From: Candidatus Polarisedimenticolia bacterium
GTDB lineage: Bacteria; Acidobacteriota; Polarisedimenticolia; Gp22-AA2
Length of the DNA: 64,000 nucleotides
Direction: 5' to 3'
NCBI GenBank assembly: GCA_036001465.1
Contig: DASYUH010000013.1
Coordinates: 92,554 to 156,553, forward strand
A model generated the notes under the pieces. It saw only the letters and a list, made by a program, of their open reading frames with translations, did no database searches and was not told the origin of the DNA. The translations under genes and the position numbers were made by a program. Below are positions 2,095 to 34,853 of the stretch, piece after piece (within the stretch, counting starts at the first letter, position 1; the number at the start of each line of letters is the position of its first letter).

Positions 2095-2850
2095 TCAGAG
2101 CGCCAGAAAGAATTTGGTCAGAAAGAAGTCCGAGACCAGGACCGAGAGCGAGGCCGCGACGACGGTCTGGGTCGTCGCACGCCCGACCCCGTCCGCTCCA
2201 CCCTCGGCGGACAGACCGCTATGGCAGGCAATGAGTGAGATGAACAGGGCGAAGAAAATCGACTTCCCGACGCCGCTGAGGATGTCCTGGACGCTGAGCG
2301 CCTGGACCACGTGTTGCATGTAGAAGGCCCCGGGCTGGTTCAGGCTCGTCGTGGCCATGGTCAGTCCGCCCAGGATACCGACGAAATCGGCGAAGATCGT
2401 GAGGATCGGCAGCATGATCAGGATCGCCAGGACCTTCGGCACCACCAGCTTGCGCACCGGGTTCGCCGCCATGGCGCGAATGGCGTCGATCTGTTCGGTC
2501 ACCTTCATTGTGCCAATCTCGGCGGTGATCCCGGCCCCCACGCGCCCCCCCACCATGAGGGCGGTCAGGACCGGCCCCAGCTCGCGCACCAGCGACAGCG
2601 CCACGATGTCTCCCACGAACAGCTTGGCCCCGTAGGCCGCCAGTGAGTAGGAGGTCTGCAGTGCCAGCACCATGCCGGTGAACAGCGCCGTGACCGTGGC
2701 GATCGCCAGGGAGCGCACCCCCAGGTGGTGCATCTGGTCGAGAATGACAGACCACTCGGGCTTCTTCCGGACCGTCTCCCTGACGGTCTGGGTGAACAGG
2801 AGCGAGATGGCTCCGAGATGTCCCAGCGCCAGATCCAGAAAACTGTTCAT
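2095..2850 (-). CDS. mlaE: ABC transporter permease MlaE
   Basis: Polytopic permease with typical MlaE N-terminus MNSFLDLALGHLGAISLLF. A GGGGGAG Shine-Dalgarno lies 9 nt upstream of the internal ATG at about 2850. The ORF track extends to a GTG at 2862. Confidence 0.85.
   Translation of the reverse strand: MNSFLDLALGHLGAISLLFTQTVRETVRKKPEWSVILDQMHHLGVRSLAIATVTALFTGMVLALQTSYSLAAYGAKLFVGDIVALSLVRELGPVLTALMVGGRVGAGITAEIGTMKVTEQIDAIRAMAANPVRKLVVPKVLAILIMLPILTIFADFVGILGGLTMATTSLNQPGAFYMQHVVQALSVQDILSGVGKSIFFALFISLIACHSGLSAEGGADGVGRATTQTVVAASLSVLVSDFFLTKFFLAL
2803..2850 (-). repeat. Live 5' end of mlaE. It is the partner of a roughly 79%-identical 48-bp ghost copy at 11741-11788 (direct orientation).
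   Basis: Codon-by-codon nucleotide alignment: ATGAACAGTTTTCTGGATCTGGCGCTGGGACATCTCGGAGCCATC versus GTGAACAGTGTTCTGGACTTGGCGTTGGGGCATCTCGGCGCGATC. Confidence 0.6.
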
Positions 2851-3367
2851 CGAGACAACCACTCCCCCCCTCGATGGCGTTCCGGCTGCGCAAGGGGCCA
2901 GATGCCCTCCTCCCTGGCGGCGGCTCGGGTCTCATTTTCCGCGGTAGCGTACCACAGAGCCGTCGACCAGAGTCGGGCTGGCGGGCGGCTTCACCAGGCT
3001 GGATTCGAGCCATGAGTTCCCGGGCTCTTGTTCCGCTCCGATTCATGAAGGTCTCCTCAGGAACCCGCTGACATCGGGTCCCGGGCGGGAGCCATGTGAA
3101 CTGCGCTTTGGGTCTTCGGATACGGGTCGCTGGTCTGGCGGCCCGCGTTCACCTTCGCCGAGCGCCTCGAACACCGAGAGCGTGCGCGATCGCGCCGCCG
3201 ACCTCGCGGCCCTCGCCCCCGGTTGACGCCACCCGCTCAAGAGCGGACCACAGTTTACCTGCGCAGCCCCTGACCGTGATCCCGCGAGAACCTCCTCGCG
3301 ATCCGGCGGCGAGGACGACTCCGAGCCGCATGCCCAGGAGGGATCGGCTTGGGTTACACTATGTCGG

Positions 3368-4810
3368 ATGCCGGCGGGTCAGGGCCGCCCGTCCGGAACG
3401 GAGCTTCTCGGCGATGCTGTCCGCGTGAAGTCCTCCTCTTGGTACCGATTCGTCAGAGTTACTCTTCGCGTGAAACAGTCGGTTCTTGATCGTTGGGATC
3501 TCGCCGCTCTTCTCTGTCTCGCTGCGAGCTTCCTTCTCGTGGCGAATGTGGGGTTCAAACCAAAGCCGTTTGGCGACACGGACTTCCACATCGAAGCCAA
3601 GGCTCTCTCCGCGGCCCTCCGCGGCGAGATGCCCTGGACCAGCGTCGCCATGACGAAGGCTCCGGCCCCCGTCGTCTACTACGCGATTCCTTATCTGTTC
3701 ATCAAACAAGGTTCGTCCGACGACGACTATTGGCGCGTTGGCGTGTTCTGGACCGCACTGTGGATGGGCGTCTCCCTGCTGTTGCTGCGAAGAGCCGCCG
3801 CTCGCGTTGGAGGGACAACGGCCGGGCTCTTCGCAGTCGTCATCACGTTGCTCAACCCGTTCAACATCTACTACGCGTTTGGCATCAGCGCAGAGAACCC
3901 GGCGTATCTCGGCGCCATATTGATGATCGCCGCATGGTTCTGGGCGAACGACAAGACTCCCGCCGACAAGAGCTCCTGGTCCAGCGCGCTGGCATTGGCG
4001 CTCGGCACCACGGTGTTGATCCTCTCGAGGCCCAACAGTGCGTTGATGCTGCCGCTGATGGTGCTGGGCGCAGTCGTCCTGGCAAGACGTGGTGACCGCG
4101 CGGGTATCCTTCTCGGTCGCAGCGTTCTCGTCGTGGTGCTCGCCCTAGCGGTGACTCGGATGGTGATCGCGCAGCTTCCCGGCCGCCCGGAGATCGCCCG
4201 ACAGGGCTCGTATCTCGCTCACGTGATGTTCCACGGCAGCTTCCAGTACCGCACGGAGACGTGGGATTGGCGCTTCTGGGACATCAAGACCCGCCCGGAC
4301 AGTGTGGACTACATCACCTGGAGCGAAGAGCTCACGTCGCTGGAGCTCGAAGCTGGACGCAAGAACGTGCCGCTCGCGTCTCTCGAATATCAGTGGATTT
4401 GGAACGATTTCCTCAGAAATCCACTCCTCCGACTGAAGATGGTCGCGGTGCGGGCGCTATCGATCCATTTCGCTCGCGTCAACTCGGTCAGTCGTCAGAC
4501 CTTCAAGATTGGTCCTTGGGAAGGACCGGCCGCGTATTGGAGCGTTCATATCGCGATCAATGCGCTGAGCGTCCTCGTTCTTGCCTGCGCACTCATCTTC
4601 ACGTTCCACCACCCGGGAGGTCCCTGGTCGGTTTGGCCGATATGGGTGCCTTGGGTCGCACTGTTGGCGTTTCACACCCTGTTTTACGCCGAGCCGCGCT
4701 ATCTGTTGCCGACGCGGCCCGGCCTGATCGTCGGGGCTGCTGCGCTGATTTCCGGCGTCCTGTCACAGCGGCGCCGATCCAACGTCACGAAGAGCTCAGG
4801 ATCGATCTGA
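3368..4810 (+). CDS. Polytopic membrane protein, probably a GT-C-fold (ArnT/PMT-like) glycosyltransferase
   Basis: 480-aa ORF with at least 9 predicted hydrophobic helices and no soluble catalytic domain. GC is lower (about 60%) than its neighbours. The start is uncertain (ATG 3368 or in-frame GTG at about 3470). Family assignment comes from overall architecture only. Confidence 0.5.
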   Translation: MPAGQGRPSGTELLGDAVRVKSSSWYRFVRVTLRVKQSVLDRWDLAALLCLAASFLLVANVGFKPKPFGDTDFHIEAKALSAALRGEMPWTSVAMTKAPAPVVYYAIPYLFIKQGSSDDDYWRVGVFWTALWMGVSLLLLRRAAARVGGTTAGLFAVVITLLNPFNIYYAFGISAENPAYLGAILMIAAWFWANDKTPADKSSWSSALALALGTTVLILSRPNSALMLPLMVLGAVVLARRGDRAGILLGRSVLVVVLALAVTRMVIAQLPGRPEIARQGSYLAHVMFHGSFQYRTETWDWRFWDIKTRPDSVDYITWSEELTSLELEAGRKNVPLASLEYQWIWNDFLRNPLLRLKMVAVRALSIHFARVNSVSRQTFKIGPWEGPAAYWSVHIAINALSVLVLACALIFTFHHPGGPWSVWPIWVPWVALLAFHTLFYAEPRYLLPTRPGLIVGAAALISGVLSQRRRSNVTKSSGSI

Positions 4811-4915
4811 CCCGCCGGCGTTCATCGGACCTGTAGCCTGCGACCTCGGTGACGACGGCGAACGGCCTCGCCTTGACCTCGTCGAAGATGCGGCCAACGT
4901 ACTCGCCGAGGACAC

Positions 4916-5902
4916 CTAGCGCCCCGCCGCAGGGCGGCGCACACGGGCCTCAACCCCGTTCCCCCCGTATTCGCACCAGATCTCCACCCCGCCGATGCGC
5001 TCGAGAGCGCGGCGGATTTGGTCGCGAGTGCGGAAATGCTTGTACCAGTCCGTCAGCGAATCGTGCGTGTCGAGCAGCGACCATTGGCGCTGCAGATCGT
5101 CGTTGAGCGGCAGCGCGTGGTAGTAGGACAGCACCGGAGATACCCTGCTGAGGAGGGCCTGCGCCACTCGGCTTCGGCGGGCCGCCCGGTGCAGTGGGAA
5201 CAGCCACCGGACCAGGCGGTCGGTCCAGAGCATTCCCTGCTCGGGCGGCAGGTGGCGCAAGACGATGCGGAACAGCGGCGCCGTCTTGGTGAACTGTGAG
5301 AGAGTATAGGTGTAGTGGTCCAGAACGAGCCAACCGCCCGGCTTCACCTGGGCGTACAGTCGCGCCAGTGCCTCCTCGGGGCTGGGTGTGTGCTGCACGA
5401 CACCCAGGCAGAATACGATGTCGTACTGCGCGGGAGCGAAGGGCAGCGAGAGGATGTCCGCCTGGACGACGCGGTGCCGATCGTCCTGCGGGAAGTTCTC
5501 CTGGTTGGCCTCGACGGCGGAGCTCAAGTCCACCGAGGTGACGCAGGCACCCGTCGACAGCAGCACTTCGGTAAATCGTCCCGCCCCGCAACCCACCTCG
5601 AGCACGTGGGTCCTGCCGGGAGCCTGGAGCGCCCGCCAGAGGGACTCTCCCAGACAGCGCCGCGCCCGGTCACGGGAGATAGTCGTGCGGGTGTAGGAGT
5701 CGAGCTGCGTCCTGCGATGAACGTTCCACTGCAAGCCGAAGGCGTCCGCGTACCCTCGTTCGGGCACGAAGCGGGGAATGCCGGCCCGCTCGGCCCAGGC
5801 ATGGCCCCGGCGGCAGGCGAGTCCCGCCGCGGCTCGCTCGAGCGGCTGGGCGTCATCCGGGCAGACGAGGGCCGGCCAGGCATCCGTCAAGAGCGCCGCC
5901 AC
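4916..5902 (-). CDS. Class I SAM-dependent methyltransferase with a Trm112-like N-terminal segment
   Basis: SAM motif I VLEVGCGAGRFTEVL. Acidic motif DLS. Motif IIl YDIVFCLGVVQHTP. The N-terminus LVCPDDAQPLE...YADAFGLQWN resembles the degenerate zinc-ribbon/Trm112 fold seen ahead of some methyltransferases. The ORF track runs on to 6541 in a G/R/P-rich frame that overlaps capA, which is probably spurious. A GTG near 5902 is proposed as the start. Confidence 0.6.
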   Translation of the reverse strand: MAALLTDAWPALVCPDDAQPLERAAAGLACRRGHAWAERAGIPRFVPERGYADAFGLQWNVHRRTQLDSYTRTTISRDRARRCLGESLWRALQAPGRTHVLEVGCGAGRFTEVLLSTGACVTSVDLSSAVEANQENFPQDDRHRVVQADILSLPFAPAQYDIVFCLGVVQHTPSPEEALARLYAQVKPGGWLVLDHYTYTLSQFTKTAPLFRIVLRHLPPEQGMLWTDRLVRWLFPLHRAARRSRVAQALLSRVSPVLSYYHALPLNDDLQRQWSLLDTHDSLTDWYKHFRTRDQIRRALERIGGVEIWCEYGGNGVEARVRRPAAGR

Positions 5903-7044
5903 AACGCCGCGAGCCTGTGCATGGCGAACCGGCCGAGCATTACGAGGTGCTCCGGGCGCGCGCGCGACATGTTCGAGGTCAGCTCCCGCCAGTGACCTTT
6001 GCGAAGGTGAATCCAGAGCCAGCTCAAGAGGTTCCCGGTGTTCAGCGAGGCTCTCTGGCGGGTGAACGCCTCTCGATACCGATCCAGGCGGATGTCCAGG
6101 CTGACCGCCTCGAGATGATCGATGATCCGCCGCGCCTCCGTTTCGACCGCCGGCACGACGCGGTAATCGTCCGTCACCTGGATCGGCACCACGGCGATCG
6201 TGCGGACCCCTTCCTTGTCGATCTCCATGATGAAGATGGCGGATTCCCTCTGCTTTTCGGGCACCGGCGGGACGCCCAGCTCTCCCTCGAAGACATCTGC
6301 GACGAAGTTGCCGAGGTTGTAAACCGCCGCCCGTCCTCCTTCCACGCCATAGCCCTGGAGGACGTGGGCGTGGTGCATGAGGACGACATGCGCGCCGGCG
6401 GCCAGGAGGCGGTCGGCGATCTCCTTGAACTCCGGTTTCGGGTAGTCGAGCCACATCAACCCGATGTGGATCGAGATGATGACGCAATCGACGCGATCCC
6501 GCAGCGCCGCAACCGATCGCATCGCGAGCCCCTCGTCCCATTCGACGAAGCCGGGCACCTCGGGATCGTCCTGCCGCTGCAGCGTCCTGCCGAATCCCAG
6601 CAGGCCGATCCGCAAGCCCTGTGCCTCGATTTCGACGGGCTGCGACGCCTCTTCCTGCGTCCCACCGGCGCCCAGCGGAAGCATCCCCGCGGCCGCCACG
6701 ACGCGACGCGTCTCCTGCAGTCCGCCGGGACCGTACTCCAGGATGTGGTTATTGGCCAGCGACAGCACCGTGAACCCGGCGCGCGACAGAGGCCCGGCCA
6801 TCGCCGGGTCACCCCTGAAGAGCTCCCGTCCCGGTCGCGGGGCGCACAGCGGGGTCTCCAGATTGCCGAAGACGATGTCCCCCGAGCGCAGGATCGGAGC
6901 GACCGCGGCGAACGCTTCGTCCGCGCCGGCCGCTCCCGGGTAGCGCCGGCGCACGCCGCCGGAGAGCATCAGGTCGCCGACTGCGACCAGACGGCAGGAG
7001 GCGCCCGCGGGCGCCCCCGGACGGCGGTAGAGCAGACGCTCCAC
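5887..7044 (-). CDS. CapA-family protein (poly-gamma-glutamate synthesis CapA-like metallophosphoesterase)
   Basis: 385 aa. Calcineurin-like fold motifs VAVGDLML, GNLETPL, LANNHILEYG, ISIHIGLMW...VLMHHAHVLQGY. Confidence 0.75.
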   Translation of the reverse strand: MERLLYRRPGAPAGASCRLVAVGDLMLSGGVRRRYPGAAGADEAFAAVAPILRSGDIVFGNLETPLCAPRPGRELFRGDPAMAGPLSRAGFTVLSLANNHILEYGPGGLQETRRVVAAAGMLPLGAGGTQEEASQPVEIEAQGLRIGLLGFGRTLQRQDDPEVPGFVEWDEGLAMRSVAALRDRVDCVIISIHIGLMWLDYPKPEFKEIADRLLAAGAHVVLMHHAHVLQGYGVEGGRAAVYNLGNFVADVFEGELGVPPVPEKQRESAIFIMEIDKEGVRTIAVVPIQVTDDYRVVPAVETEARRIIDHLEAVSLDIRLDRYREAFTRQRASLNTGNLLSWLWIHLRKGHWRELTSNMSRARPEHLVMLGRFAMHRLAALWRRS

Positions 7045-7340
7045 CTAATGCCTCACAGCGGTCGTGGGGATCGGCATCAGCACAGTTGCCATCAAGGATT
7101 CACCAGGGCTTCCGCGGTTGCGAGGGCCTGAATATACCCCGGCGGCCGGTGTACGGCAATGCTCATTCCGATCACGGATACCGTTCCTTCCGGCCAGCAT
7201 GGCAACCCTAGCCAGGCGCTGGGTCGCCAACTATCTCAGGCGGTGGGAAGCGGTGGAGCGGGTCTCACAAGCATTGGAGCCAGGGGAAACCGGGCGCACG
7301 CCCGAACATGCAGTCCAGGGCCCGCACGGGTACTGATGCG

Positions 7341-9083
7341 TCAGTCTGCACGTTCGTAGATGTCGATGTTCGGTCCGGGCCTCTCGACGTCGTGGAAACC
7401 GGCGAAGGGCAAATAGAACGCGTCCTGTTGATCGAAGAAGTTGTCCTTCCGATCGAGTTCGGTCACGTGGAAGGACCTCGTACGTCTGTAGGATTCTTCC
7501 AATAGGCGTCCTATCCCGGCCGGGATCTCATTGCGCGTTGAAAGCGGTGACGAGGCCGTGATGATGTATCGGGGTCGATCATGTCTGATCTCATGGCCAA
7601 AAGCGAACTTGCGAGATTTCGGATCATAGGCCCATTCCTCGAACACCCGGATCTGCTTCGCCTCTTGATGATCGGCTAGGATGCGGTCCATCTCCGCCCT
7701 CATCTCCCCGATGGCACCGGACGCAGGCTCAGAGGTCCTCTCCAGGGATTCACGAGTTTCGGGCAGCCGCAGGCGCTCCCAGCCGCCGGTTTGATAGACG
7801 GAACTGTGTCCCTCGAGGTGAGCCTGTGCCCAGTTGGTGGCCAGGAGGCGACTATCGGGTCTGTCGAGAAGCGAGTTTGATCGGATTACGTTATGGGCCG
7901 AAGGGAAGACAATGAGGCCCGCGAGGGCCAGGGTCGCACCGTTCTTCAGATAGGAGGAACGACCCCGTGCAATGAGGTCGGCGAGGTCAATGACACTGAC
8001 GGCTGCCGCGATGCAGAGAAAAGGGACGACGGGAATCATGTACCTGAGGAACACGGTCAACCCTTTTCCCGCGATGGCGTAATAGACCATGGGAAAGGAC
8101 CAGAGGACGAGCGCGGTTCTCGGACTTCGGCGTGCGAAAATGAACAATCCGACCAGCGATGCGACCAGCAGGCTCCATCCAAGGCCGTGCCACAAGGTAA
8201 AGCGGAGGTGGTACCACCATCCCCTGCCTAGGTCGATGCGATCGCCCGAAGAGAGATGCCACGCCTCGTAGAGAACCCCGGAAAGGAACGTCCGGAAATC
8301 GATCAACGCGAACGGTGTCCCGGCCAGGAAGGCGAATACCATCCCAAGGACAAAGACCAAGATCCGTCTATCGATCAAGGACCCGAGCACGCTGACGTAC
8401 AACGGGCGGACAAGCGACACGTGGCACAAAAGGAGAGGGACGGCCAGAAAAAGACCACTGTACTTCGTGGACATGGCCAGTCCGGCGAAAATCCCGGCGA
8501 GCAGGTAATTCGTCCGAGTCGGATGAGCATGGATTCTGGATATGAACAGAACGGAGCACATGATCAGAAACGCCAGCGGTACGTCCGTGACGCCAAAGTG
8601 CGAGTCTCGGACATGGAGGTGTGTCAGGGCGAGAAAAAGTGCTGCGACGAGGCCCGTCCTCCGGTCGACGGAGCGCGCGCAAATGCGGTAGACGAGCCAG
8701 ACGGTCGCGATGCCGAGAGTTGCCGAAATGGTTCTGTCAATGAGGTAGAAGTTGGACGGATCGAGCGCGTATTCGGTGAGAAAGTCGGGTCGCGATGAAT
8801 ACCTTCCCGACAGGGTCCCGAGAAGGTAGTAGCAACCATACAAGAAGAACAGGACATACATGTAGAGCGTGGGATAGTTAAACACGTGCGGATTGAAATC
8901 GCCGGAACTGAAGCGAAGCGCCGTTCTGATCAGGTGAGCTTCGTCGGGCCGGCACTCCGGGTTCGGGAGCCCGAAGCCGATTCCCCAGAATCTTACGAAG
9001 GCGGCGACACACAGAACAGCGAGGAGCGCCAGGCGGTGCCCCGTCGAATTCGAGTGCGAGCCCTGGTCACGTTCCGTGGTCAT
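7341..9083 (-). CDS. GT-C-fold glycosyltransferase, family 39/83-like (ArnT / protein O-mannosyltransferase-like)
   Basis: Polytopic membrane protein. N-terminal loop RPDEAHLIRTALRF has a DE-type motif after TM1. Many TM helices, then a C-terminal soluble domain of about 180 aa. GC about 57%. The ATG at 9083 (MTTERDQ...) has a GAGG 10 nt upstream. The ORF track TTG is at 9137. Confidence 0.7.
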   Translation of the reverse strand: MTTERDQGSHSNSTGHRLALLAVLCVAAFVRFWGIGFGLPNPECRPDEAHLIRTALRFSSGDFNPHVFNYPTLYMYVLFFLYGCYYLLGTLSGRYSSRPDFLTEYALDPSNFYLIDRTISATLGIATVWLVYRICARSVDRRTGLVAALFLALTHLHVRDSHFGVTDVPLAFLIMCSVLFISRIHAHPTRTNYLLAGIFAGLAMSTKYSGLFLAVPLLLCHVSLVRPLYVSVLGSLIDRRILVFVLGMVFAFLAGTPFALIDFRTFLSGVLYEAWHLSSGDRIDLGRGWWYHLRFTLWHGLGWSLLVASLVGLFIFARRSPRTALVLWSFPMVYYAIAGKGLTVFLRYMIPVVPFLCIAAAVSVIDLADLIARGRSSYLKNGATLALAGLIVFPSAHNVIRSNSLLDRPDSRLLATNWAQAHLEGHSSVYQTGGWERLRLPETRESLERTSEPASGAIGEMRAEMDRILADHQEAKQIRVFEEWAYDPKSRKFAFGHEIRHDRPRYIITASSPLSTRNEIPAGIGRLLEESYRRTRSFHVTELDRKDNFFDQQDAFYLPFAGFHDVERPGPNIDIYERAD

Positions 9084-9434
9084 CCCGAAGCCTCGGATTC
9101 GGATGGAAGGGGGGCCATTGCGGCGCTCAGAAGTCAAATCGTAAGGGCGCAGCGACCGCGTACAGGGAATGGCAGGATGAGCGTCATCTTCTCGAATTCA
9201 TGGGAGCGGAAGGTCCCCATGCATAGATCGGCCGCGCGGACGCATCACGCCGGCCCCTACGAGGGGTGTCAGGCCGATGGCCATGATGGCCGTGCGTCGT
9301 TCCAGCGATCGCAAGGCTAGGACCATGCCGGCATTCTAGCACTGTCGGGGCCTTGGCCGAGATGGCCTATCCTGCGCGGCGATCGTCCCAAGACAGCCAT
9401 TGGCTGCGTGCGACGGGCCTTCCGCGCGAAGGGT

Positions 9435-9554
9435 CCGGTGGTCCTCATCGACTGCGGCCGGAAGAACAACCAGGTGTGCATGCTCCTGGAGAAGAGCGCG
9501 GAGGGCGGCCAGGGACATCGTCTTCAGGTTGCTGGTGAGGCCTGTCTTGGACAT
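9435..9554 (-). pseudogene. Composite ghost: a carA-internal fragment (plus strand, about 9435-9500) fused to a DUF4388 5'-end fragment (minus strand, about 9490-9554)
   Basis: 40 of 41 nt are identical to carA codons for PVVLIDCGRKNNQ (CCGGTGGTCCTCATCGACTGCGGCCG[G/C]AAGAACAACCAGG). The antisense side encodes MSKTGLTSNLKTMSLAAL, versus the live DUF4388 start MSMKGLTGNLKTMSLPDL. Confidence 0.55.
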
Positions 9555-9692
9555 CGCTCCTCAGGGGCGGTCCGGACGGGGCCGCGGAACGCCCGGTCCT
9601 GGTGGGGAATCACCGGGACCGGGGATGGTTGGCGATTGCATGCCCCGGGCAAACGTCGTATATTCTGAGACCCGGCGGACCCAAGTTACGCG

Positions 9693-10157
9693 ATGAACCC
9701 CTTGGCCAGGAAGGCCCTGCTCTTCGCCCTCTTCTCCCTGCTTCTGGGAGGGGAGACGGCCTACTTCGGGCGCGAGTGCGCCGCCACAGTCCAGCGACAG
9801 CGGGGCGAGCGGGCCTTCTTCTGGAACGATCACCGCACCTCGTGGGGCCACAATCGGGCTGCTCTCGCCTGGGGAAGCAACCCCGAGCGCCTGCGGCGGA
9901 AGAGACCGATCGACCTCCAGGCCCCGTCAGAGGATCCCCGCGAGAACCTGACCCCCGCCCTCATCGAGATCGATGCCGCGCGCCTTTTGGTCGCGCAGGA
10001 CGAGCGCGATTGCACCGTGGAGTTCCGGAAGAAGGCCATCGCGATCGACCCGTGCTCCTACGATGCCCGGTTCCTGCTCGGGCTCCTCGCCCTGAACCCT
10101 GGCGCGAGCGGCCACCGGGAGCAGTGCGCCAGCATGGCGCCGGGGACGGCACGATGA
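9693..10157 (+). CDS. Small secreted protein with signal peptide and TPR-like C-terminus
   Basis: 154 aa. N-terminus MNPLARKALLFALFSLLLGGETAYF looks like a signal peptide. C-terminus AIAIDPCSYDARFLLGLLALNPG is TPR-like. Its TGA overlaps the ATG of the downstream ligase-like gene (ATGA), which suggests translational coupling. Confidence 0.45.
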   Translation: MNPLARKALLFALFSLLLGGETAYFGRECAATVQRQRGERAFFWNDHRTSWGHNRAALAWGSNPERLRRKRPIDLQAPSEDPRENLTPALIEIDAARLLVAQDERDCTVEFRKKAIAIDPCSYDARFLLGLLALNPGASGHREQCASMAPGTAR

Positions 10158-11578
10158 GCACGCTGCGTCGCGACATGAGCCGCCCGATCATGATGCTGAT
10201 CGTGTTGGGCTACCTGACGCTGCTGGCCGTCGGACTGATCCGGATGCACCTCGATCCGGACGTCGTGGCGGCCCTGACGATCGGCGGGATCGGCCTGGTC
10301 ATCCTGGCGCTGCGCCCGTACCTCGGGATCCATGCGTTCATCGCGGTCATGTACCTCGAAAACGTCCTTCCCAGCGAGGGCGGTGTCACGGGCCCGAAGG
10401 TGCTCGGTGCGGTCATCCTCACGGGATGGCTCCTGAGCGCCGCCCTGCGGCGCGGGCTGGGCTTCCGGCTGGGCGCGTTCGTGCTGGTGATGCTCGCGTT
10501 CGTGACCTGGACCGGCGTCTCCTCGGTCTACGCTCTCGACGACGAGCTGGCGCTCGCCCGCGTCTTCAGCTTCGTGCAGCTGGCGGGCGCGACGCTGATG
10601 TTCATCTCGGTCATCGATCGCCCGAGCCGGATGCGGGGAGTGCAGTGGGCCATCGTCCTGTGGACTTGCCTCGCCACCATCTTCGCCCTGGCGGAGTACT
10701 ACCTGGGGTTGACCAACGTCGCCGTGGGATTCATCGGCAACCGGAACGGGCTCGCCAGCGGGATCAGCTTCGCGATCGTCTTCGCCTGCTTGCTCTACCA
10801 GGCGGATCCGGGGCGACTGGCGAGGCTGTTCCTTATCTTCACCCTGCCGGTCTTCTTCCTCGGACTCGCGCTCACCCTGTCGCGCACCGGCTTCATCATG
10901 CTCGCCGTGGGGCTTCTGGCGGTCTGGTACAGGGTCGTCAGGGACAAGGGTCTTCTGATCCTGGCGGGATCGGTGGCCGCGCTCAGTCTGGTTACCGTCC
11001 TGCTACCGGACACCGTCTGGCAGCGCGTCGGCAGCATCGTCCCGGCCATCCGGCAGCAGCGGGACACCTTCGGATTGCGGGTCCGGCTGTGGCAGGCCGG
11101 CATGCGGATGATCGAAGACCGGCCGGTGTTCGGCGTGGGGCCGGGCAACTTCGTCGCGGCCCTGCCGCGTTACTCCCCGGGGGAGCTGACGGGCCGGCAG
11201 CTCGTGGCCCACAACTCGTACGTGAGCGTCGCGGCCGAGATGGGGCTCGTCGGCTTGGCCCTTTTCCTGATGATGTACCTGCTGGCGCTCCGCGAGGCCG
11301 GCTTCGCTTTGCGATGGGGGCGACGGTCGGGATCGAAGGAGTTGGAACTCCACGCGTTCGCGATGGAGATCAGCCTGATCCTGGTGATGACCGGGGCCCT
11401 CGCCGGCAGCCTCGAGAGCCTCAAGTACAACTGGATGTGCCTGGGGCTGGCCGTCGGTGTCGGGCAGGTGGCACGGCAGGCCTCGTCGAGGGCCGGGGCG
11501 CAACTCCGCGGCAGGGCGGTCGGCGCCGTCACGGAGGGTGCGGGCGGCCCAAACGTGGAGCCGCGGCGACTCGGCTGA
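10154..11578 (+). CDS. O-antigen ligase / Wzy_C-family membrane protein (polymerase/ligase-like)
   Basis: About 474 aa from the ATG at 10154. About 10 TM helices. Characteristic periplasmic loop motif RPVFGVGPGNF...AHNSYVSVAAEMGLVGLALF. The ORF-track 5' extension (9602-10153) is G/R/P-rich and overlaps the upstream gene. Confidence 0.75.
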   Translation: MSTLRRDMSRPIMMLIVLGYLTLLAVGLIRMHLDPDVVAALTIGGIGLVILALRPYLGIHAFIAVMYLENVLPSEGGVTGPKVLGAVILTGWLLSAALRRGLGFRLGAFVLVMLAFVTWTGVSSVYALDDELALARVFSFVQLAGATLMFISVIDRPSRMRGVQWAIVLWTCLATIFALAEYYLGLTNVAVGFIGNRNGLASGISFAIVFACLLYQADPGRLARLFLIFTLPVFFLGLALTLSRTGFIMLAVGLLAVWYRVVRDKGLLILAGSVAALSLVTVLLPDTVWQRVGSIVPAIRQQRDTFGLRVRLWQAGMRMIEDRPVFGVGPGNFVAALPRYSPGELTGRQLVAHNSYVSVAAEMGLVGLALFLMMYLLALREAGFALRWGRRSGSKELELHAFAMEISLILVMTGALAGSLESLKYNWMCLGLAVGVGQVARQASSRAGAQLRGRAVGAVTEGAGGPNVEPRRLG

Positions 11579-11740
11579 CGGACCCCCCGGCGCTTCACCG
11601 GCTGGTGCTCGTCGTCGGGCAGCTCACCCTCGCGGGCTCGAGAGACAGGTCGTCCTGCTGGCTTCCGGTCTCGATCGTCGCCCGTTCGAGATCGGCGAGG
11701 TCTCGCTCACCGCCTGTGGCATTTGGGGAAAGGCTCTGGG

Positions 11741-11788
11741 CGAGATCGCGCCGAGATGCCCCAACGCCAAGTCCAGAACACTGTTCAC
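11741..11788 (-). repeat. Ghost copy of the mlaE 5' end (translates VNSVLDLALGHLGAIS)
   Basis: About 79% nucleotide identity to 2803-2850, same strand. ATG is replaced by GTG and there is no SD. Lies in the 590-bp gap between the ligase-like gene and plsC. Confidence 0.55.
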
Positions 11789-12170
11789 GGAACTCGCCGC
11801 ATCATGGCAAGATGGATCAGCCCGCCCAGCAGCACGTGCAGGCCAAGGTTGAGGATTTGGAGAGGGACGGGATTCCGGCCGCAGAGAGCCTGGGCGGCCG
11901 ACGCCGGAACCTTTAAAAAGCCGGATCCGAAGTAAAACTGGAAGTCATCGGAAACGTAGCCGCCGGTCAGCCCCACGCCCTATACGGCCACACAGGCCGC
12001 CGAAAGAAGCGTCAGGCAAAGGCCGGAGGCGTTCCGCGGAGTTGCGTTTTCGGCACGGATGAAAGAGAACGGAAGTCTAACGGAGCGACGTGCTCCGGTC
12101 AAGGAACGGAGCGCACAGTCTATACTTGCCGCCGGAGGGACCGCACCATCCCGCGACCGAGTCTGCGCTG

Positions 12171-12902
12171 ATGAACCTGCTTCGCCTGGCGCTCATTGTC
12201 CTGTACACCTTCGTGATCGGAACGATCACGATTGTCCTCTGTGTTCTGGTCCCTGGGGGTTCGACTCTGAGGCCGCTGGCGCGCCTCTGGTCCTGGCTGG
12301 TGCTGCGGACCTGCCGGGTGCGCTCCCGGGCCATCTACCATCCGCACCTGGATCCTGCCCGACCGAGCATTTACATCGCGAACCACCAGAGCCAGTTCGA
12401 CATCCCCGCGCTCGCACTGGCCATGAAATCCGATTTCCGGATGGTCTCCAAGCGAGAGCTCCTTTACGTGCCCGTTTTCGGTTGGGCTCTCTGGTTCGCG
12501 GGATTCGTCTTCATCGACCGCACCAACCGCGCCAAGGCGATCCAGAGCCTGGATCGGACGGCACGCATGATTCGCAAGGGAACCTCGGTCGTCGTGTTCG
12601 CAGAGGGCACGCGCAGCCCCGACCGCCGGCTCCTCCCCTTCAAGAAGGGAGGGTTCATCCTCGCGTTGCAGGCCGGCGTGCCGATCGTCCCCGTCTCCAT
12701 CCGAGGTGGACACGACGTCCTGCCCAAGGGCAGTCTGCGGATCCGGCCCGGCACCATCGAGGTAGTGTTCGGCGAACCGGTTCCGACCTCCTCCTATTCC
12801 CTGGAGACCAAGGACGATCTGATCGCCGCAGTGCGGGAGCGGATCACGGCGGGACTCGCTCAGACGCCGGACCTGTTCCGCGTCTCCACATCTGCTATTT
12901 GA
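12171..12902 (+). CDS. plsC: 1-acyl-sn-glycerol-3-phosphate acyltransferase family (PlsC/LPLAT)
   Basis: N-terminal TM helix, then HxxxxD catalytic motif (ANHQSQFD), FAEGTRS and PIVPVSI motifs. ATG at 12171 (MNLLRLALIVLY). Confidence 0.75.
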   Translation: MNLLRLALIVLYTFVIGTITIVLCVLVPGGSTLRPLARLWSWLVLRTCRVRSRAIYHPHLDPARPSIYIANHQSQFDIPALALAMKSDFRMVSKRELLYVPVFGWALWFAGFVFIDRTNRAKAIQSLDRTARMIRKGTSVVVFAEGTRSPDRRLLPFKKGGFILALQAGVPIVPVSIRGGHDVLPKGSLRIRPGTIEVVFGEPVPTSSYSLETKDDLIAAVRERITAGLAQTPDLFRVSTSAI

Positions 12903-14814
12903 TGTCGTGCAGCGAATCCTGGCGGCCCAGATCCCCATCCATGAACATACGGAACCACAGCTCGAGCCAGAGGAGCGCCCACAATTTCGAGGACTGGTCC
13001 TCGCCAGCCATGTGGCGAGCGATGAGGCTCCGCACCTCCGACCGATGGAAGTAGCCGCGACTCTCGAAACGCGGGTGCGTGAGCAGCACTTCGAGCGGCT
13101 TTCTCAGGGGTCCGCGCAGCCACGACGCCAGCGGGATGCCGAAGCCCTGTTTGGGGCGGTAGACGACCGAGGGAGGGACCAGTCGCGCGGCCAGGGTCTT
13201 GAGAAGATGCTTCCCCTGCAGCCATTTGAATTTCATCGAGGACGGCAGCGCGGCGGCGAACTCCAGGATGCGGAAATCGAGCAGCGGCGAACGGGTCTCG
13301 AGCGAGTTCGCCATCGACGCGATATCCATTTTCACCAGTAGATCGTCGGGAAGATAGGTCTGGATCACCACCTGCAGCCCCCTGTCCACCTCGTCCGCTC
13401 CATCGGTGCCGAGGTACACCTCATGGCAGTACTCGGCCGGATCGAGGCTGGTCAGCTGCGAACGGAAGGAGGGAAGGTAAAGCCTCTCCAAGTCTAACCT
13501 TTTATACCCCGGCCAGATCCAGAAGAGGTCGGCGGCCGAGCGCTCGGCCCACTCCGGCAGCAGGCCCACCAGGGTCAGGAGCCGGCCGTGGGCCCCCGGC
13601 ACCCGCTTCAATGCGCTCCCGAGAGACTTCAGGGCGGCGCGGCTCAAGCGTCGGCCCGCCAGACGGCGGCACCACTCGATCGTTCGAATCGCGCGGTTCC
13701 AGGGGTAGCCTGCGAAGGGCTCGTCGCCCCCGTCGCCATTCAAGGCGACCTTGACGTGCTTGCGGGCCGCTTCCGACACGTAGTAGCTCGGAACCGCGCT
13801 TGAATCGGCGAAGGGCTCCCCGTAATGCCACACCAGCCTGGGAAGGATGGCCGCGGCGTCCGCCTCGACGCGGATTTCAGTGTGCTCCGTGTGCAGCGCC
13901 TCCGCGACAGCCCGTGCATGGGGCAGCTCGTTGTGGCTCTCTTCGGCGAACCCGACCGAGAACGTCCGCACGGCGCCACCGGCCCGGCTCATCATGGCGA
14001 CGACCGTGCTCGAATCAACTCCGCCGCTGAGGAATGCCCCCAGAGGCACGTCGCCGATGAGGCGCAGCCGGGTCGCGTTCTCGAGGAGTTCATCGAGCCG
14101 CTCGACCGCCTCTTCCTGGGTGCAACGGATTTTTTCTCGAAACGACAGCTTCCAGTAGGAATCGGTGCGCGCTCCTGTCCGCGTGCAGGTCATGACGCTT
14201 CCGGGCGGCACCTTGCGCACGCCCGCGTAGATGGACATGTCACCGGGAACGCACAGGTAGCCGAGGTAGGAGTTCAGGGCGGCCTGGTCGACCGGTGGGA
14301 TGCTCTTCAGTCCCCGGACCAGCGCCCGCACCTCGGAGGCAAAGACGACTTCACCGTCTCCGTCCCGGTAGAAGAGCGGCTTCTTGCCGACCCGGTCCCG
14401 GGCCAGGTAGAGCGTCTGCCGCGGCGCGTCCCACAGGGCGATGGCGAACATGCCGTTGAGGCGCCTGACCACGTCGATCCCCCAGTGCATGTATCCCTGC
14501 AGGATGACCTCGGTATCGCTCTGGGTGAGGAAGCGCCGCCCCTGCGACTCCAGATCGGATCGCAGCTCCCGATAGTTGTAGATCTCGCCGTTGAAAACGA
14601 TCCGGGCGGATCCGTCCTCCGGCCCCATGGGCTGATTCGCCGTGGGGGAAAGATCGATGATGGCGAGACGGTTGAAGGCCAGACCGATGTGCGGCGACGT
14701 GTGCAGGCCTTGGTCATCCGGACCTCGGTGCGCCTGGTCGTCCCTCATCCGCAGGAGACGATTGACCTGGATCGGCGAGTCTCCCCGACTGAAGATCCCA
14801 GCGATGCCGCACAT
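12895..14814 (-). CDS. Asparagine-synthase-family glutamine amidotransferase, paralog 1
   Basis: 639 aa. Starts MCGIAG (Cys2 Ntn nucleophile). Class-II GATase motifs RGPDD, RLAIIDL, GEIYN. Synthetase-domain PP-loop SGGVDSS. 19 nt downstream of the large OM protein gene on the same strand. Confidence 0.85.
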   Translation of the reverse strand: MCGIAGIFSRGDSPIQVNRLLRMRDDQAHRGPDDQGLHTSPHIGLAFNRLAIIDLSPTANQPMGPEDGSARIVFNGEIYNYRELRSDLESQGRRFLTQSDTEVILQGYMHWGIDVVRRLNGMFAIALWDAPRQTLYLARDRVGKKPLFYRDGDGEVVFASEVRALVRGLKSIPPVDQAALNSYLGYLCVPGDMSIYAGVRKVPPGSVMTCTRTGARTDSYWKLSFREKIRCTQEEAVERLDELLENATRLRLIGDVPLGAFLSGGVDSSTVVAMMSRAGGAVRTFSVGFAEESHNELPHARAVAEALHTEHTEIRVEADAAAILPRLVWHYGEPFADSSAVPSYYVSEAARKHVKVALNGDGGDEPFAGYPWNRAIRTIEWCRRLAGRRLSRAALKSLGSALKRVPGAHGRLLTLVGLLPEWAERSAADLFWIWPGYKRLDLERLYLPSFRSQLTSLDPAEYCHEVYLGTDGADEVDRGLQVVIQTYLPDDLLVKMDIASMANSLETRSPLLDFRILEFAAALPSSMKFKWLQGKHLLKTLAARLVPPSVVYRPKQGFGIPLASWLRGPLRKPLEVLLTHPRFESRGYFHRSEVRSLIARHMAGEDQSSKLWALLWLELWFRMFMDGDLGRQDSLHDIK

Positions 14815-23490: not shown

Positions 23491-25419
23491 CTACCACCCG
23501 AGCTTCCGGTCCCGCAGCCAGAGCTCCAGGGCGAGGAGCATGAGCACCCTCTGGTAGAGCCCGCCCCGGCTGATCGTGCCCACCCTGCGCCCCGCTCCCG
23601 CCGCGCGAAACCACTCCAGCCAGCGGTCCACCAGAGCGCCGCTCAGGAACCCCCGGATCCGCGCGCCGCCCGACCGGAGCAGATCGTCGAGCATGGCGTG
23701 GAACGCGGGACCGACCATGCGATCGAGAGGGATGGAGAAGCCCTGCTTCCGGTGCTCCGCCACCTTCCGGGGAAGCCAGCGCCTGGCCAGGGCGCGAAGC
23801 ACGAGTTTGCCCTCGCGCCCGTCCGTCTTCAGTCGATGCGGGAGCCGGAGCCCGCAGCGGACGACCTCCTCATCCAGCATCGGCACCCGCACCTCGATGC
23901 TGGCGCGCATGCTCATCATGTCGACCTTGCGCAACATGTCCCCCGGGAGGCTCGCGGCGAAGATGGCCTCCGTCAGCCGCCGCGACAGGGGCTCGAGGTC
24001 CATGACCCCGGCCGGATCGTACGGTCCGAACATGCGGTCGACCGGCAAGAGCCCCGCCCGCGCGTCGGGCAGGACCAGCTCCTCCTTCTGGGATTCGCTC
24101 AGATAGCTGTAGAACCTTGCGAACAGACGGGCGGTGCTCTCCCCTCCCGTCCCGGCCAGCCGGACGATCTTGGCGGCCTGCCTTCCCAGATCGGCCGTCC
24201 ACGGCTCGAGAAGGTCCCCTCCCCGTGCCAGGAGTTCGCGGAGCGGACCCGGAAGGCGGCTCAGCCGGTGGAGGAGATTGAGCCGCCAGAAGGATGCATA
24301 CCCCCCGAAGCCCTCGTCGCCCCCGTCGCCGGACACCGTGCAGATGATCCCGTTGTCACGGATTGCGCGGCTCACGGCGTAGGTGGGCAGGAGGCTGGAG
24401 TCGGCAAACGGCTGATCGAAGTGCCGCAGCAGGTCGTTCACTGAATCGGGAGCGAGCACGCGGTCGTCCACCTCGATCGAGCGATGCCGGGTTCCGTAGT
24501 GGCTCGCCACGGCGAGCGCCATCTCGGTCTCGTCGTACCCGGATTCCGGAAAGCGGACGTTGAACGTCGAGGGGGTCCCGGAGGTCGTCCGGCAGAGCGC
24601 GGCCACCACCAGGGACGAGTCGATGCCGCCGCTCAGGAGCGCGGCCACGGGCACATCGGCGCGCGATTGCTCCGCCGCGGCGCGCAGGAGAGCCGCCTCT
24701 GCGGCGTCGACCGCCTCCTCCAGGGTCAGGCCGTCCTCCGGCTCGGGATGGACGGTATGGAATCTCTTCGGGATCCGCCCCTTGCAGTCGACGAGGAGAG
24801 TGGTGCCGGTGGGCAGCATCTCGATCCCGAGGAAGCCGGTCGCCGGCTCCGGCACGTATCCGAGCGCCAGGAAGTCGTAGCAGGCCTGGCGATCCACGCC
24901 CGCCTCGATCACCGCCGACGTGAGGATCGCCTTGATCTCGCTGGCGAAGACGAGATGGTCGCCCCGCACCGCGTAGTAGAGCGGCTTGATGCCGAAGCGA
25001 TCGCGCCCCAGAAGGAGCGACCGCCTGTTCCGGTCGTAGATGGCGAAGGCGAACATGCCCCGCAGCCGCCCGGCGAGGGCGGCGCCTTCCTCCTCGTACA
25101 GATGGGCGAGGACTTCGGTATCCGAGGTCCCTCGAAACCTGTGACCCCGTTGCTGCAGCTCCCGCCGGAGCTCGGGATGGTTGTAGATCTCCCCGTTGAA
25201 CACCACCTGGACGCTGCCATCCTCGTTGGGCATGGGCTGATTGCCGGTCGGCGTCAGATCGATGATGGCCAGGCGCCGAAACACGAGCTCGCAGGTGCCG
25301 TCGTGGAAGTGCCCGCCTCCGTCGGGTCCGCGGTGCTGCAGGAGAGCGTCGGCATGGACCCGCCAGGCGGGATCGGGAGGCAGTTGGTTCGGGTGAAAAC
25401 GGCCGGCAATCCCGCACAT
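23491..25419 (-). CDS. Asparagine-synthase-family glutamine amidotransferase, paralog 3
   Basis: Start trimmed to the ATG at 25419 so the product begins MCGIAG (the ORF track begins 17 codons earlier). RGPDG, RLAIIDL, GEIYNH, PP-loop SGGIDSS. Convergent with paralog 2, 8 nt apart. Confidence 0.85.
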   Translation of the reverse strand: MCGIAGRFHPNQLPPDPAWRVHADALLQHRGPDGGGHFHDGTCELVFRRLAIIDLTPTGNQPMPNEDGSVQVVFNGEIYNHPELRRELQQRGHRFRGTSDTEVLAHLYEEEGAALAGRLRGMFAFAIYDRNRRSLLLGRDRFGIKPLYYAVRGDHLVFASEIKAILTSAVIEAGVDRQACYDFLALGYVPEPATGFLGIEMLPTGTTLLVDCKGRIPKRFHTVHPEPEDGLTLEEAVDAAEAALLRAAAEQSRADVPVAALLSGGIDSSLVVAALCRTTSGTPSTFNVRFPESGYDETEMALAVASHYGTRHRSIEVDDRVLAPDSVNDLLRHFDQPFADSSLLPTYAVSRAIRDNGIICTVSGDGGDEGFGGYASFWRLNLLHRLSRLPGPLRELLARGGDLLEPWTADLGRQAAKIVRLAGTGGESTARLFARFYSYLSESQKEELVLPDARAGLLPVDRMFGPYDPAGVMDLEPLSRRLTEAIFAASLPGDMLRKVDMMSMRASIEVRVPMLDEEVVRCGLRLPHRLKTDGREGKLVLRALARRWLPRKVAEHRKQGFSIPLDRMVGPAFHAMLDDLLRSGGARIRGFLSGALVDRWLEWFRAAGAGRRVGTISRGGLYQRVLMLLALELWLRDRKLGW

Positions 25420-25674: not shown

Positions 25675-26355
25675 TTGAATGCTGACGTGACCAGGTCTGG
25701 AGGTGGCGATGAAGGCGACGAAGAAGGGCGCTTCCATGCAATGCGGAAAGATGCGCTCCGCCTGCTGTTCATGCGGCACGGGGCGCCTTTGGTGCTGAAG
25801 TCGGACAACGGCGCGTGCTTCACCTCGGCGGATGTCCGCTCTCCATGCGAACAGAACGGTGTGCTACAGTTGTTCACCGGAGGGCACCTCCGCCCACAAC
25901 GTCAGCGTCGAGGCCGGCATTGGGTCACTTCAGACACGCGCGCACTATGAATCAGCCCGGCACGGACGTCTTCTGGAATGGACCTGAGATGACTGGAGGC
26001 GATGCGCCTAAGCTACAAAACAGCCCATCCTCAGAGGCGCTTCGGCCCGACCCCGGAGCAGGCTTGGGCGTCGCACCCCGCTATCACCGCCGCCCAGCGT
26101 CATTGGTTCAGGGCCAGCCGTGTGCATCACGCCGAGCGCGAACGCGCCGACCGGAGCATCCCTCCCGGCCTCCAGTTCGGCCATCGGGCGCGGGCATTGA
26201 TCAACCGTTTCGTCGACAGGAAACAGCTGCGGCTCCGCTACGAGGCCTACTGTCGGCAACCGGCGCACAAAAGTTCCCTCTCCTTCAAATTCCGCGGACT
26301 GGCGCTGGAGATCTGGGCGCGACGATTCGAGTCTTGTCTGCGGCTCGGCGGATGA
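25675..26355 (+). pseudogene. Decayed DDE transposase/integrase-core (rve) remnant
   Basis: The frame at 25675-25950 encodes PLVLKSDNGACFTS...CEQNGV, which resembles the rve-core second-Asp region (hSDNGsqFts). The following frames carry possible C-terminal remnants. Multiple frame breaks. GC is visibly lower than the flanks. Confidence 0.35.
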
Positions 26356-26386
26356 AAGAACGTTCGCGGGACGGGCATCCGTTACG

Positions 26387-27313
26387 ATGAAGTGGACCAC
26401 GAAAGCGCTCATCCAGCGAACGCTCTCACGGACCCCGGCCGGAGGGACCGTGTACTTTTGGGGGCAGAAATGGTTCGGCGGCTACCGGCACTTCACGATC
26501 GACCAGAAGGTTCAGCAGGGAATGGTCCTTGCGGAAAGCCTGTTCCAGTCAGGCCAGACCTTTTCAGGTCGCCGAACCGTCGAGATCGGTTGTGGCTGGA
26601 CGCCGGTGGTGCCGCTGCTCTTCTGGATGTACGGACAGGAGGAGTGTCACACTTACGATGTATCCCGGTTGCTCCGGCGCTCACTGATGCTTGAAACAGT
26701 CCGGCAGATCGGGGAGTTTCACGGACTGGATCGCGATCTGCCGGACGGGGAACACCGGGAACGGCTTCGGAAGCGCGCTGCGATTCTGGCCGACCTGGCG
26801 CGGTTACGGGCCGCCACAGGGGACATCCTGGCACGCTGCAGCATCGTCTACCACGCGCCGCACGACGCGTCGGCCACGGGTCTGGCGAACGGCTCGATCG
26901 ATGTCGTGTACTCAAACACCGTTCTCGAGCACATCCCCGAGGAAGCTCTCGCCGGCCTGTTTGCCGAGGCGCATCGGGTCCTCCGTCCCGGAGGTCACAT
27001 GCTTCACCTCATCGACCTGAGCGATCATTTCTCGCATGGTGATCCCACCATCTCGTCCATCAACTTCCTGCGCTTCTCGGAAGCGTCCTTCTCGAAATAC
27101 AACACGACATTTCTCTATCAGAACCGCCTGCGCTCCCATCAGTGGCGGCGGATCTTCGAAGACTCGGGGTTCGAGATCCGGGTCTGGCAGGAGATTCGTG
27201 ACGCCGGGATCCGCTCTTTGTTGCCCCGGTTTCCGCTCGATCGGGCGTTTGCCCATTTGAGCGAGGAAGAGCTATGCATCGGCTCCATTCGCGTGGTCGC
27301 GACCCGGGCGTGA
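26387..27313 (+). CDS. Class I SAM-dependent methyltransferase
   Basis: 308 aa. Motif I VEIGCGWTP. Motif post-I/II IDVVYSNTVLEHIPEE. LRPGGHMLHL. ATG at 26387. Confidence 0.7.
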   Translation: MKWTTKALIQRTLSRTPAGGTVYFWGQKWFGGYRHFTIDQKVQQGMVLAESLFQSGQTFSGRRTVEIGCGWTPVVPLLFWMYGQEECHTYDVSRLLRRSLMLETVRQIGEFHGLDRDLPDGEHRERLRKRAAILADLARLRAATGDILARCSIVYHAPHDASATGLANGSIDVVYSNTVLEHIPEEALAGLFAEAHRVLRPGGHMLHLIDLSDHFSHGDPTISSINFLRFSEASFSKYNTTFLYQNRLRSHQWRRIFEDSGFEIRVWQEIRDAGIRSLLPRFPLDRAFAHLSEEELCIGSIRVVATRA

Positions 27314-34783: not shown

Positions 34784-34853
34784 AGCCTCGGTAGGTCAAT
34801 CTTCCTGCTTCTAAACCCGATCGCTGGTCCTTCGAGCGTTCGGTCTGGGTCGT

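Follow-up and report, generated by a model that had tools for sequence, protein, structure and literature searches.

A decayed relic of the mlaE 5' end beside plsC, at the edge of a putative surface-glycan island in a Polarisedimenticolia bacterium

In the 64,000 nucleotides analysed here (the window; Candidatus Polarisedimenticolia bacterium, Acidobacteriota, GenBank assembly GCA_036001465.1, contig DASYUH010000013.1, positions 92,554 to 156,553), the first 16 codons of mlaE occur twice: once in the working gene and once as a short copy, termed the ghost, beside plsC at the opposite end of a block of glycan genes. Throughout, gene identities were assigned by Pfam, phage-type genes by PHROGs and RNAs by Rfam, and the relatives' loci or contigs that were compared with the window are labelled L003 to L103. 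Among the GTDB species representatives the MlaE identity to the window is at most ~60%; a large protein collection contributed MlaE relatives up to 97% identical, whose genomic contexts were recovered. The left end of the window is occupied by an Mla-type operon on the minus strand, in which an MlaE permease, an MlaF ATPase and an MCE-domain MlaD stand together in 142-2850. The last operon gene in the window is mlaD (142-1341; Pfam MlaD, E 5e-17; 77-92% amino acid identity to relatives), preceded by the ABC ATPase gene mlaF (1328-2086; ABC_tran, E 1.5e-29) and by the working copy of mlaE (2095-2850; MlaE, E 5e-78), which has an exact match in the protein collection (GenBank HEV8700154.1). The first 16 codons of this gene, at 2803-2850, form the left-hand copy of the repeat. 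They are followed by the present-day mlaE upstream region (2851-2982, minus strand), which contains TGGTACGCT, is common to L088, L090, L093 and L103, and is delimited by blastn homology reaching 2982.

The island proper begins with GTC1 (3368-4810, plus strand), a gene for a GT-C-like membrane glycosyltransferase with weak Pfam similarity to Glyco_transf_22/PMT_2, for which only 19 homologues were found. On the minus strand there follow a gene for a methyltransferase dependent on S-adenosylmethionine (MT, 4916-5902; Methyltransf_11), which is also called in L086, and a CapA/PGA_cap-like gene (5887-7044; PGA_cap, E 2e-55), both absent from L093/94, and then GTC2 (7341-9137; PMT/PMT_2), a gene for a PMT-family GT-C glycosyltransferase with 87-90% amino acid identity in L091, L093 and L096; the start called in L086 gives a protein of 580 aa at ~7341-9083. 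On the plus strand, orf154 (9693-10157), called in L086 and traced by tblastn, has no PHROG match and exists in L093 as an enlarged copy. The right-hand island gene is a Wzy_C gene (10154-11578; E 6.5e-23; 80-90% amino acid identity in L093 and L096), resembling O-antigen ligases and polymerases. Glycan polymerase/ligase and glycosyltransferase genes are thus among the contents, as judged by Wzy_C, PMT/PMT_2, Glyco_transf_22-like and PGA_cap matches, and the gene calls of a preliminary description of this DNA (two GT-C enzymes, a methyltransferase, a CapA-like and a Wzy/WaaL-like gene, the mla genes and plsC) are confirmed by Pfam. Between the Wzy_C stop codon (11578) and the ATG of plsC (12171) extends a gap of 592 nt, in which the ghost is located. 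From left to right it holds a non-coding flank (11579-11740), the ghost (11741-11788, minus strand), a leader (11789-12073, minus strand), a retained promoter (12074-12102, minus strand) and the -10 box of plsC (12120-12126, plus strand). The gene plsC itself (12171-12902, plus strand; Acyltransferase, E 1.4e-35; 64-95% amino acid identity to relatives), a member of the 1-acylglycerol-3-phosphate acyltransferase family, is followed by an AsnB-like amidotransferase gene (12895-14814, minus strand; Asn_synthase).

The repeat is real and far beyond chance. Without gaps, codons 1-16 of mlaE (2850-2803, minus strand) match 11788-11741 at 40 of 48 positions (83%), the register shifted by one base (2802-2849 versus 11740-11787) yields 41/48, and 17 codons yield 42/51, with a longest exact run of 8 nt. 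When the window was simulated 300 times with an order-1 Markov model and each simulation was searched on both strands, the top score for the 48-mer was 27.0 on average and 30 at most; elsewhere in the real window the next-best match is 26. Identity falls to 33%, the random level, directly upstream of the start codon and past codon 17; similarity to mlaE ends at the start of codon 17, where the breakpoint can be placed only to 11738-11740. The ghost opens with GTG, which heads a 54-codon open reading frame (ORF; 11624-11788), and this frame overlaps a 63-aa ORF at 11785-11976 via GTGA. The same block and ghost are present in L086 and L087, two independent Logan assemblies with 99.4% nucleotide identity to the window, so that the arrangement is no assembly artefact, and a diverged form of the ghost structure occurs in ENA and JGI contigs (L093/L094). 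The preliminary description had placed the repeat at these positions on the minus strand, with ATG changed to GTG and a gap of ~380 bp before a divergent plsC, all of which the alignment bears out (the gap measures 382 nt); its identity figure of ~79% has to be raised to the measured 83%, and the shuffle-type significance check that it proposed leaves 40/48 (41/48 in the shifted register) well above the simulated maximum of 30/48.

A number of relatives show a direct adjacency of mlaE and plsC. Of the 16 nearest GTDB loci, 6 (L003, L006-L009, L016), belonging to distant Thermoanaerobaculia, have plsC directly upstream of and divergent from mlaE-mlaF-mlaD; the adjacency recurs in the close relatives L082-L085 (MlaE 86-88%) and L101/L102 (MlaE 92%). 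In the close relatives the spacer measures 144-146 bp and holds a conserved promoter motif, TTGAC-N17-TAGAAT/TAGACT, which is separated from the start of plsC by 50-53 nt, from the ATG of mlaE by 64-66 nt, and by 15 nt from an AGTATAG box that corresponds to a TATACT -10 element for plsC on the opposite strand. On the minus strand of the window this motif is found only at 12102-12074, aimed at the ghost. This ancestral-type mlaE promoter (P', TTGACC-17-TAGACT), predicted from its motif and aligned with the spacer promoter of the relatives, stands 17 nt from the AGTATAG/CTATACT box and ~68 nt from the plsC ATG, and it is the sole promoter-like site in a scan of 11500-12300; as the 128 kb of the window contain just two instances of the motif, the chance of one landing in this 80-nt target is ~0.001. 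Upstream of the working mlaE, a promoter scan revealed no ancestral-type promoter; the ~130-nt region there, shared with the four relatives named above, is different from the ancestral spacer. Blastn of the upstream region of either copy against the spacer of the relatives gave nothing significant outside the coding part, a comparison that is informative only at the level of the promoter motif. As the ancestral-type promoter is retained only beside plsC and points to the ghost, the ghost marks the mlaE start in its original place, and an ancestral order in which mlaE-mlaF-mlaD and plsC were divergent and had a short promoter spacer in common is supported. Both propositions had been put forward in the preliminary description and hold up against the relatives' loci and the position of P'. 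The working mlaE is presumably expressed from a different upstream region today. The leader between P' and the ghost comprises 285 nt, compared with 64-66 nt in relatives; it is 89% identical to its counterpart in L093, where it has suffered two deletions, and it has neither an Rfam match nor anything similar by blastn.

The state of the ghost can be read from its orthologue in L093/L094 (MlaE 97%, plsC 95%), which occupies the same Wzy-plsC spacer. The ghosts of the window and L093 have TTG9, GGC13, GCG14 and the junction codon CCC17 in common. The L093 copy has lost its start codon by a 67-nt deletion and carries an in-frame TGA at codon 10, and P' has disappeared there by a 93-nt deletion. 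Between the window and L093 the nucleotide identity of the ghost is 87%, similar to that of the non-coding flanks (86-89%; 86% for 11579-11740), in contrast to 92-96% for genes and 48/48 for the working mlaE 5' end. The ghost diverges like the adjoining non-coding DNA, which marks it as non-functional and drifting at the neutral rate: it is a dead relic older than the split of the window and L093. Our own estimate from substitution counts and identities, assuming an identical starting copy, suggests an age of ~2.4 times that split. The relic originates from within this small clade, as indicated by lineage-specific states. The first 48 nt of mlaE change rapidly (the 93%-identical relative L081 retains only 30-31 of 48), and the ghost and the window mlaE are mutual nearest sequences that have Ser3 (AGT), Asp6 and Leu12 in common. 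The GTG start and Val4 of the ghost are both found in working alleles of sister lineages. Furthermore, 6 of the 7 changes between ghost and mlaE in codons 2-16 are synonymous (P 0.002-0.011 with L088 as outgroup, a test that puts all changes on the ghost), and with both ghosts on the tree 7 of 10 events are of synonymous type (P 0.006-0.03); the lineages are mosaic, and adding the L093 ghost weakens the P value. The bias would fit divergence between functional alleles before truncation, for which it is only suggestive. With regard to the working gene, the segment 2803-2850 is identical to L093:10001-10048 (48/48) and nearly so to L088:9565-9612 (47/48), whereas the whole genes are 93.5% and ~85.5% identical, which points to local recombination or to selection that acts on the 5' end and also on the synonymous sites within it. 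Within the leader, a block of ~100 nt is roughly 95% identical to L093, above the adjoining non-coding DNA.

What lies between mlaE and plsC differs strongly among lineages whose MlaE proteins are 92-97% identical, with at least five arrangements at the junction. No genes at all separate mlaE and plsC in L082-85 and L101/102. A single gene, GTC1, stands between them in L088/89 (MlaE 94%), 93 nt from plsC, and GTC1 together with a GT2 gene in L090 (MlaE 96%), in both cases without a ghost; L103 likewise shows mlaE, the new upstream region and then GTC1 in the order also seen in L088/89 and L090, and again no ghost. The window and L086/87 carry GTC1, MT, CapA, GTC2, orf154, Wzy and the ghost, and GTC1 is the sole island gene common to the window, L088/89 and L090. 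In L093/94 a broken GTC1, a PMT gene, a CPSase_sm-like gene, an enlarged orf154, Wzy and the ghost are present, and MT and CapA are missing. A fifth form, with orf442, PMT, orf110 and Wzy, followed at 45 nt by a full plsC, is found in L096-98 and L091 (MlaE 93%), the contig of L091 stopping short of Wzy and plsC. The plsC -10 box, kept in every other arrangement, is gone from the 45-nt spacer of L096-98, which is therefore a deletion derivative. In these lineages a second relic has been left behind: a remnant of the C-terminal half of plsC (aa ~121-227; L096:9513-9812, also in L097 and L098; L091:4221-4521) directly adjoins an intact ancestral promoter that precedes mlaE and, in L096-98, coexists with the full plsC across the island, and this remnant is only 46-59% identical to any full plsC. 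The working mlaE of this group starts with GTG (VNGVLD...; L091:4592, L096:9884), and the gene caller shortened the L096-98 copy to 212 aa. In L093 (L093:8697-9422 and L093:5398-6621), GTC1 is split into two fragments with 85% amino acid identity, accompanied by the CPSase_sm-like gene and the enlarged orf154; the island of this sister lineage is decaying and rebuilt gene by gene. On the short contig of L081 (MlaE 93%), an FG-GAP/TSP_3 gene (L081:10-1279) takes the position of plsC and stops 20 nt short of the ancestral mlaE promoter, one more arrangement of this junction. A foreign origin of plsC in the island lineages was considered and discarded: plsC evolves ~3 times faster than MlaE and shows no clear break.

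The preliminary description had explained the block as a single 8.9-kb insertion that created attL/attR-type repeats, and a site-specific integrative element with its own replica of the mlaE 5' end and a new promoter, whose integrase was later lost, would account for several features: imperfect direct repeats bracket the block, the working gene appears regenerated, the homology begins exactly at the start codon, and the divergence is biased towards synonymous sites as in the e14/icd-icdC case (PMC13626634). As the preliminary description had already noted, no integrase is left in the segment; no integrase, excisionase, recombinase, transposase or phage-like gene or remnant was detected among the block ORFs by Pfam and PHROGs, no tRNA is present in the block, and the Pfam lists of the orthologous islands in L086-L098 contain no recombinase. 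Among the relatives the block does not come and go as one unit, the junction holding zero, one, two or other sets of genes. The repeats at its ends match at only 40/48 positions with no exact run above 8 nt, and decay could have erased an att core. The cargo consists entirely of glycan biosynthesis genes, and its composition is not distinct across the whole block: only GTC1 (61% GC) and GTC2 (58% GC) have a low GC content at third codon positions (GC3; 0.76 and 0.72), whereas GC3 in MT, CapA (0.85 for each of these two), orf154 and Wzy spans 0.85-0.91, compared with 0.81-0.90 in the flanks. The lower GC proposed for several block genes thus holds for the two GT-C genes and not for the other four, which are flank-like, and the ~70% GC quoted for comparison has to be corrected to the 64-65% measured for the flanking mla and plsC genes. 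With no recombinase, a piecemeal content and heterogeneous GC3, a single insertion of the att/integrase type is not supported, and an integrative element is regarded as improbable.

The island is best read as a variable surface-glycan island between conserved flanks, mosaic in nature and not a single mobile element. In this clade the plsC-mlaE junction has become a site of variable glycan genes, which recombination among related lineages would have rebuilt several times. The arrangement in the window probably arose in the following manner. A related lineage would have supplied DNA that already included mlaE with the new upstream region, GTC1 and additional glycan genes. This DNA may have paired homologously in or beyond the mla operon, and an illegitimate joint at codon 17 of the resident mlaE would have attached its far end. 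The resident mla genes would thereby have been replaced, and codons 1-16 would have been stranded beside plsC together with their former leader and promoter; the relic has since drifted neutrally. The following observations speak for this course of events. The truncation of the resident gene is abrupt, identity dropping from 83% to 33% at codon 17, and the same junction (CCC17) is found in L093. A donor-type arrangement, with mlaE, the new upstream region and GTC1 and without a ghost, exists in L088/89, L090 and L103. Finally, there are two opposite relics, the mlaE 5' end beside plsC in the window and the plsC fragment beside mlaE in the L096 type, each of which keeps an ancestral promoter and faces a full-length copy of the same gene across the island, as would be expected from one-sided recombination of island-bearing DNA into an ancestral adjacency. 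From these traces we infer the recombination mechanism and its direction; to the reading as a whole (an mlaE relic in its ancestral place, a mosaic glycan island and one-sided homologous plus illegitimate joining) a probability of roughly 0.55 is assigned.

Several points weigh against this reading. Neither a donor nor a recipient genome was found, and no full-length mlaE with the ghost peptide was detected in the JGI metagenome collection; the ghost leader is confined to ghost-bearing contigs, a search with a leader 21-mer returning the L094 contig alone. The left homologous crossover cannot be located, since the window reaches no further than mlaD and the lineages are mosaic, and owing to this mosaicism the direction of transfer and the homologous crossover are not fixed; the donor sequence beyond Wzy, against which microhomology at the junction would be judged, was not found. 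The significance of the synonymous bias is only moderate, 3 of the 7 synonymous-type changes fall on the non-coding branch of the window ghost, so that the bias is partly due to chance, and a phage-borne gene-end replica would produce the same bias, as in e14/icd-icdC. The number of substitutions is also compatible with an identical in-situ duplicate that decayed neutrally over ~2.4 times the window/L093 divergence, and the length of the leader, 285 nt compared with ~65 nt in relatives, is left unexplained.

A serious rival is a duplicative insertion in situ, by a Campbell-type crossover of a circularised fragment with 48 nt of homology or by template switching, followed by neutral decay. The mutual closeness of the two copies and their common lineage-specific states, the present neutral rate of the ghost with a number of differences that fits the ~2.4-fold divergence of our own estimate, and the failure to find a separate donor allele are all in its favour; 48 nt of imperfect homology would be a very poor RecA substrate, however, the nonsynonymous-type changes are too few for pure neutral decay (P 0.002-0.03), the Val4 and GTG of the ghost match natural alleles of sister lineages and do not look like random changes, and the plsC relic of L096/L091 is left unexplained, all of which renders in-situ duplication unlikely. 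That plsC relic would find its place in a segmental duplication or import of a second plsC-promoter-mlaE module, with the island in between and the redundant mlaE or plsC subsequently lost down to fragments, and both kinds of relic do exist, each with an ancestral-type promoter. Yet no lineage has both relics, no trace of plsC is found upstream of the window mlaE, and a C-terminal plsC relic of 46-59% identity and an mlaE ghost of 83% nucleotide identity are unlike the products of one duplication; as more steps would also be needed, this scenario has a low probability. A mirror-image target duplication, comprising mlaE codons 1-16, the spacer and the plsC 5' end, was discarded, both because the L096/L091 relic is the C-terminal half of plsC and because of the missing plsC trace upstream of the window mlaE.

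The ghost might alternatively serve a function, either as the start of a small protein, encoded by the 54-aa ORF in coupling with the 63-aa one, or as an antisense or regulatory RNA against Wzy. The GTG start, the open 54-codon frame with its overlapping upstream ORF, the intact consensus-like promoter aimed at the ghost, the synonymous-type bias and the ~95% conservation of the leader block with L093 could be taken in this sense; the loss of the start, most of the upstream ORF and the promoter in L093/94, the TGA in the frame, the divergence like that of adjoining non-coding DNA, the lack of a gene call in L086/87 and the lack of a Pfam or Rfam match make a functional ghost very improbable. 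Highly improbable, too, is the idea that the plsC-mlaE promoter of Polarisedimenticolia acts as a dedicated landing pad for an unrecognised, recombinase-independent exchange of glycan-gene cassettes that regenerates the flanking gene end, with the stranded promoter and its conserved leader kept in some lineages as an antisense or regulatory transcript that links Wzy to the envelope-lipid genes. High-GC coding DNA yields many weak repeats, which would be the background for a chance similarity, and an assembly chimera is the other trivial source of such a repeat; against a null maximum of 30/48 for a 41/48 match, two independent assemblies and the diverged ENA and JGI contigs, the probability of either is practically negligible.

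The preferred reading, an mlaE relic left by one-sided joining at a mosaic island, places the locus among known systems. O-antigen clusters are located between galF and gnd, and pneumococcal cps loci between dexB and aliA. Like these loci, the island varies in its Wzy and glycosyltransferase content between close lineages while its flanks are conserved, it has a patchy and in part low-GC composition, and gene fragments lie at the cassette borders. Unlike them, it is flanked by the mla operon and plsC and is situated inside a formerly shared divergent promoter, and it belongs to an uncultured member of the Acidobacteriota. For the joining step the closest precedent is homology-facilitated illegitimate recombination, which combines one homologous anchor with one illegitimate end; it has been documented experimentally and has been invoked for orphan gene relics, such as the orphan immunity genes and effector remnants in type VI secretion system (T6SS) clusters of Vibrio cholerae and the orphan 3' ends of Rhs genes (PMC3240628; PMC5361080). 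As in these T6SS and Rhs relics, new genes stand beside a conserved anchor, an abruptly truncated resident gene lies at the far end of the insert, related strains have intermediate arrangements, and a recombinase is missing. In contrast to them, the mechanism has been reconstructed here without a donor, a mapped anchor crossover or junction microhomology, the cargo is made up of glycan genes, and a 5' end with its promoter has been stranded in place of a 3' end or an immunity gene.

The layout also resembles that of prophage e14 in the icd gene of Escherichia coli, where integrase-mediated insertion regenerates the gene end and leaves the pseudogene icdC (PMC13626634, with Hill et al. 1989 as cited there); most differences between the e14-borne and the host icd end are at synonymous sites (PMC13626634). 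Both cases have in common a working gene that is followed by an insert and then by a short, directly oriented pseudogene copy of its end, with mainly synonymous differences. In e14, however, there is an integrase, precise excision and a 3' end, whereas here there is no recombinase, no unit and a 5' end. With no recombinase, no unitary behaviour and no distinct composition, the locus lacks the defining marks of an integrase island despite its e14-like layout.

As a trace of genome rearrangement the locus is ordinary: it adds an example to a known kind of genome evolution without a new type of element or mechanism. Its interest resides in the datable footprint of a surface-polysaccharide island that would have grown inside a promoter shared by two envelope-lipid genes, those of the mla transporter and plsC, in a class of uncultured soil Acidobacteriota, at a junction that seems to be a recombination hotspot and where mlaE has apparently been rewired to a new upstream region. 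From short gene-end relics of this kind one can deduce in which order and direction such events took place.

Further variation is found on the other side of plsC. In the window, L086/87, L093/94 and L096-98, the AsnB-like gene is inserted between plsC and a gene for a 1043-aa LolA-like protein; nothing intervenes in the ancestral-type relatives (L082-85, L101), where the convergent plsC and large gene overlap. The AsnB-like gene occurs at this spot only in lineages with a large island and is missing from L088/89 and L090, and the spot is a second variable site adjoining the island. Low GC3 similar to that of the GT-C genes is also seen in two genes outside the island, at 26201-27313 (0.74) and 33074-34795 (0.71). 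A 70-nt inverted match of 83% connects the small-ORF region of the island (9435-9504) with a distant large ORF (42990-43059). Two further repeats, a 255-nt direct repeat of 76% identity (32611-32865 and 35820-36074) and a pair of Asn-synthase-like segments of 72% identity (14548-14670 and 25153-25275), probably represent paralogous genes.

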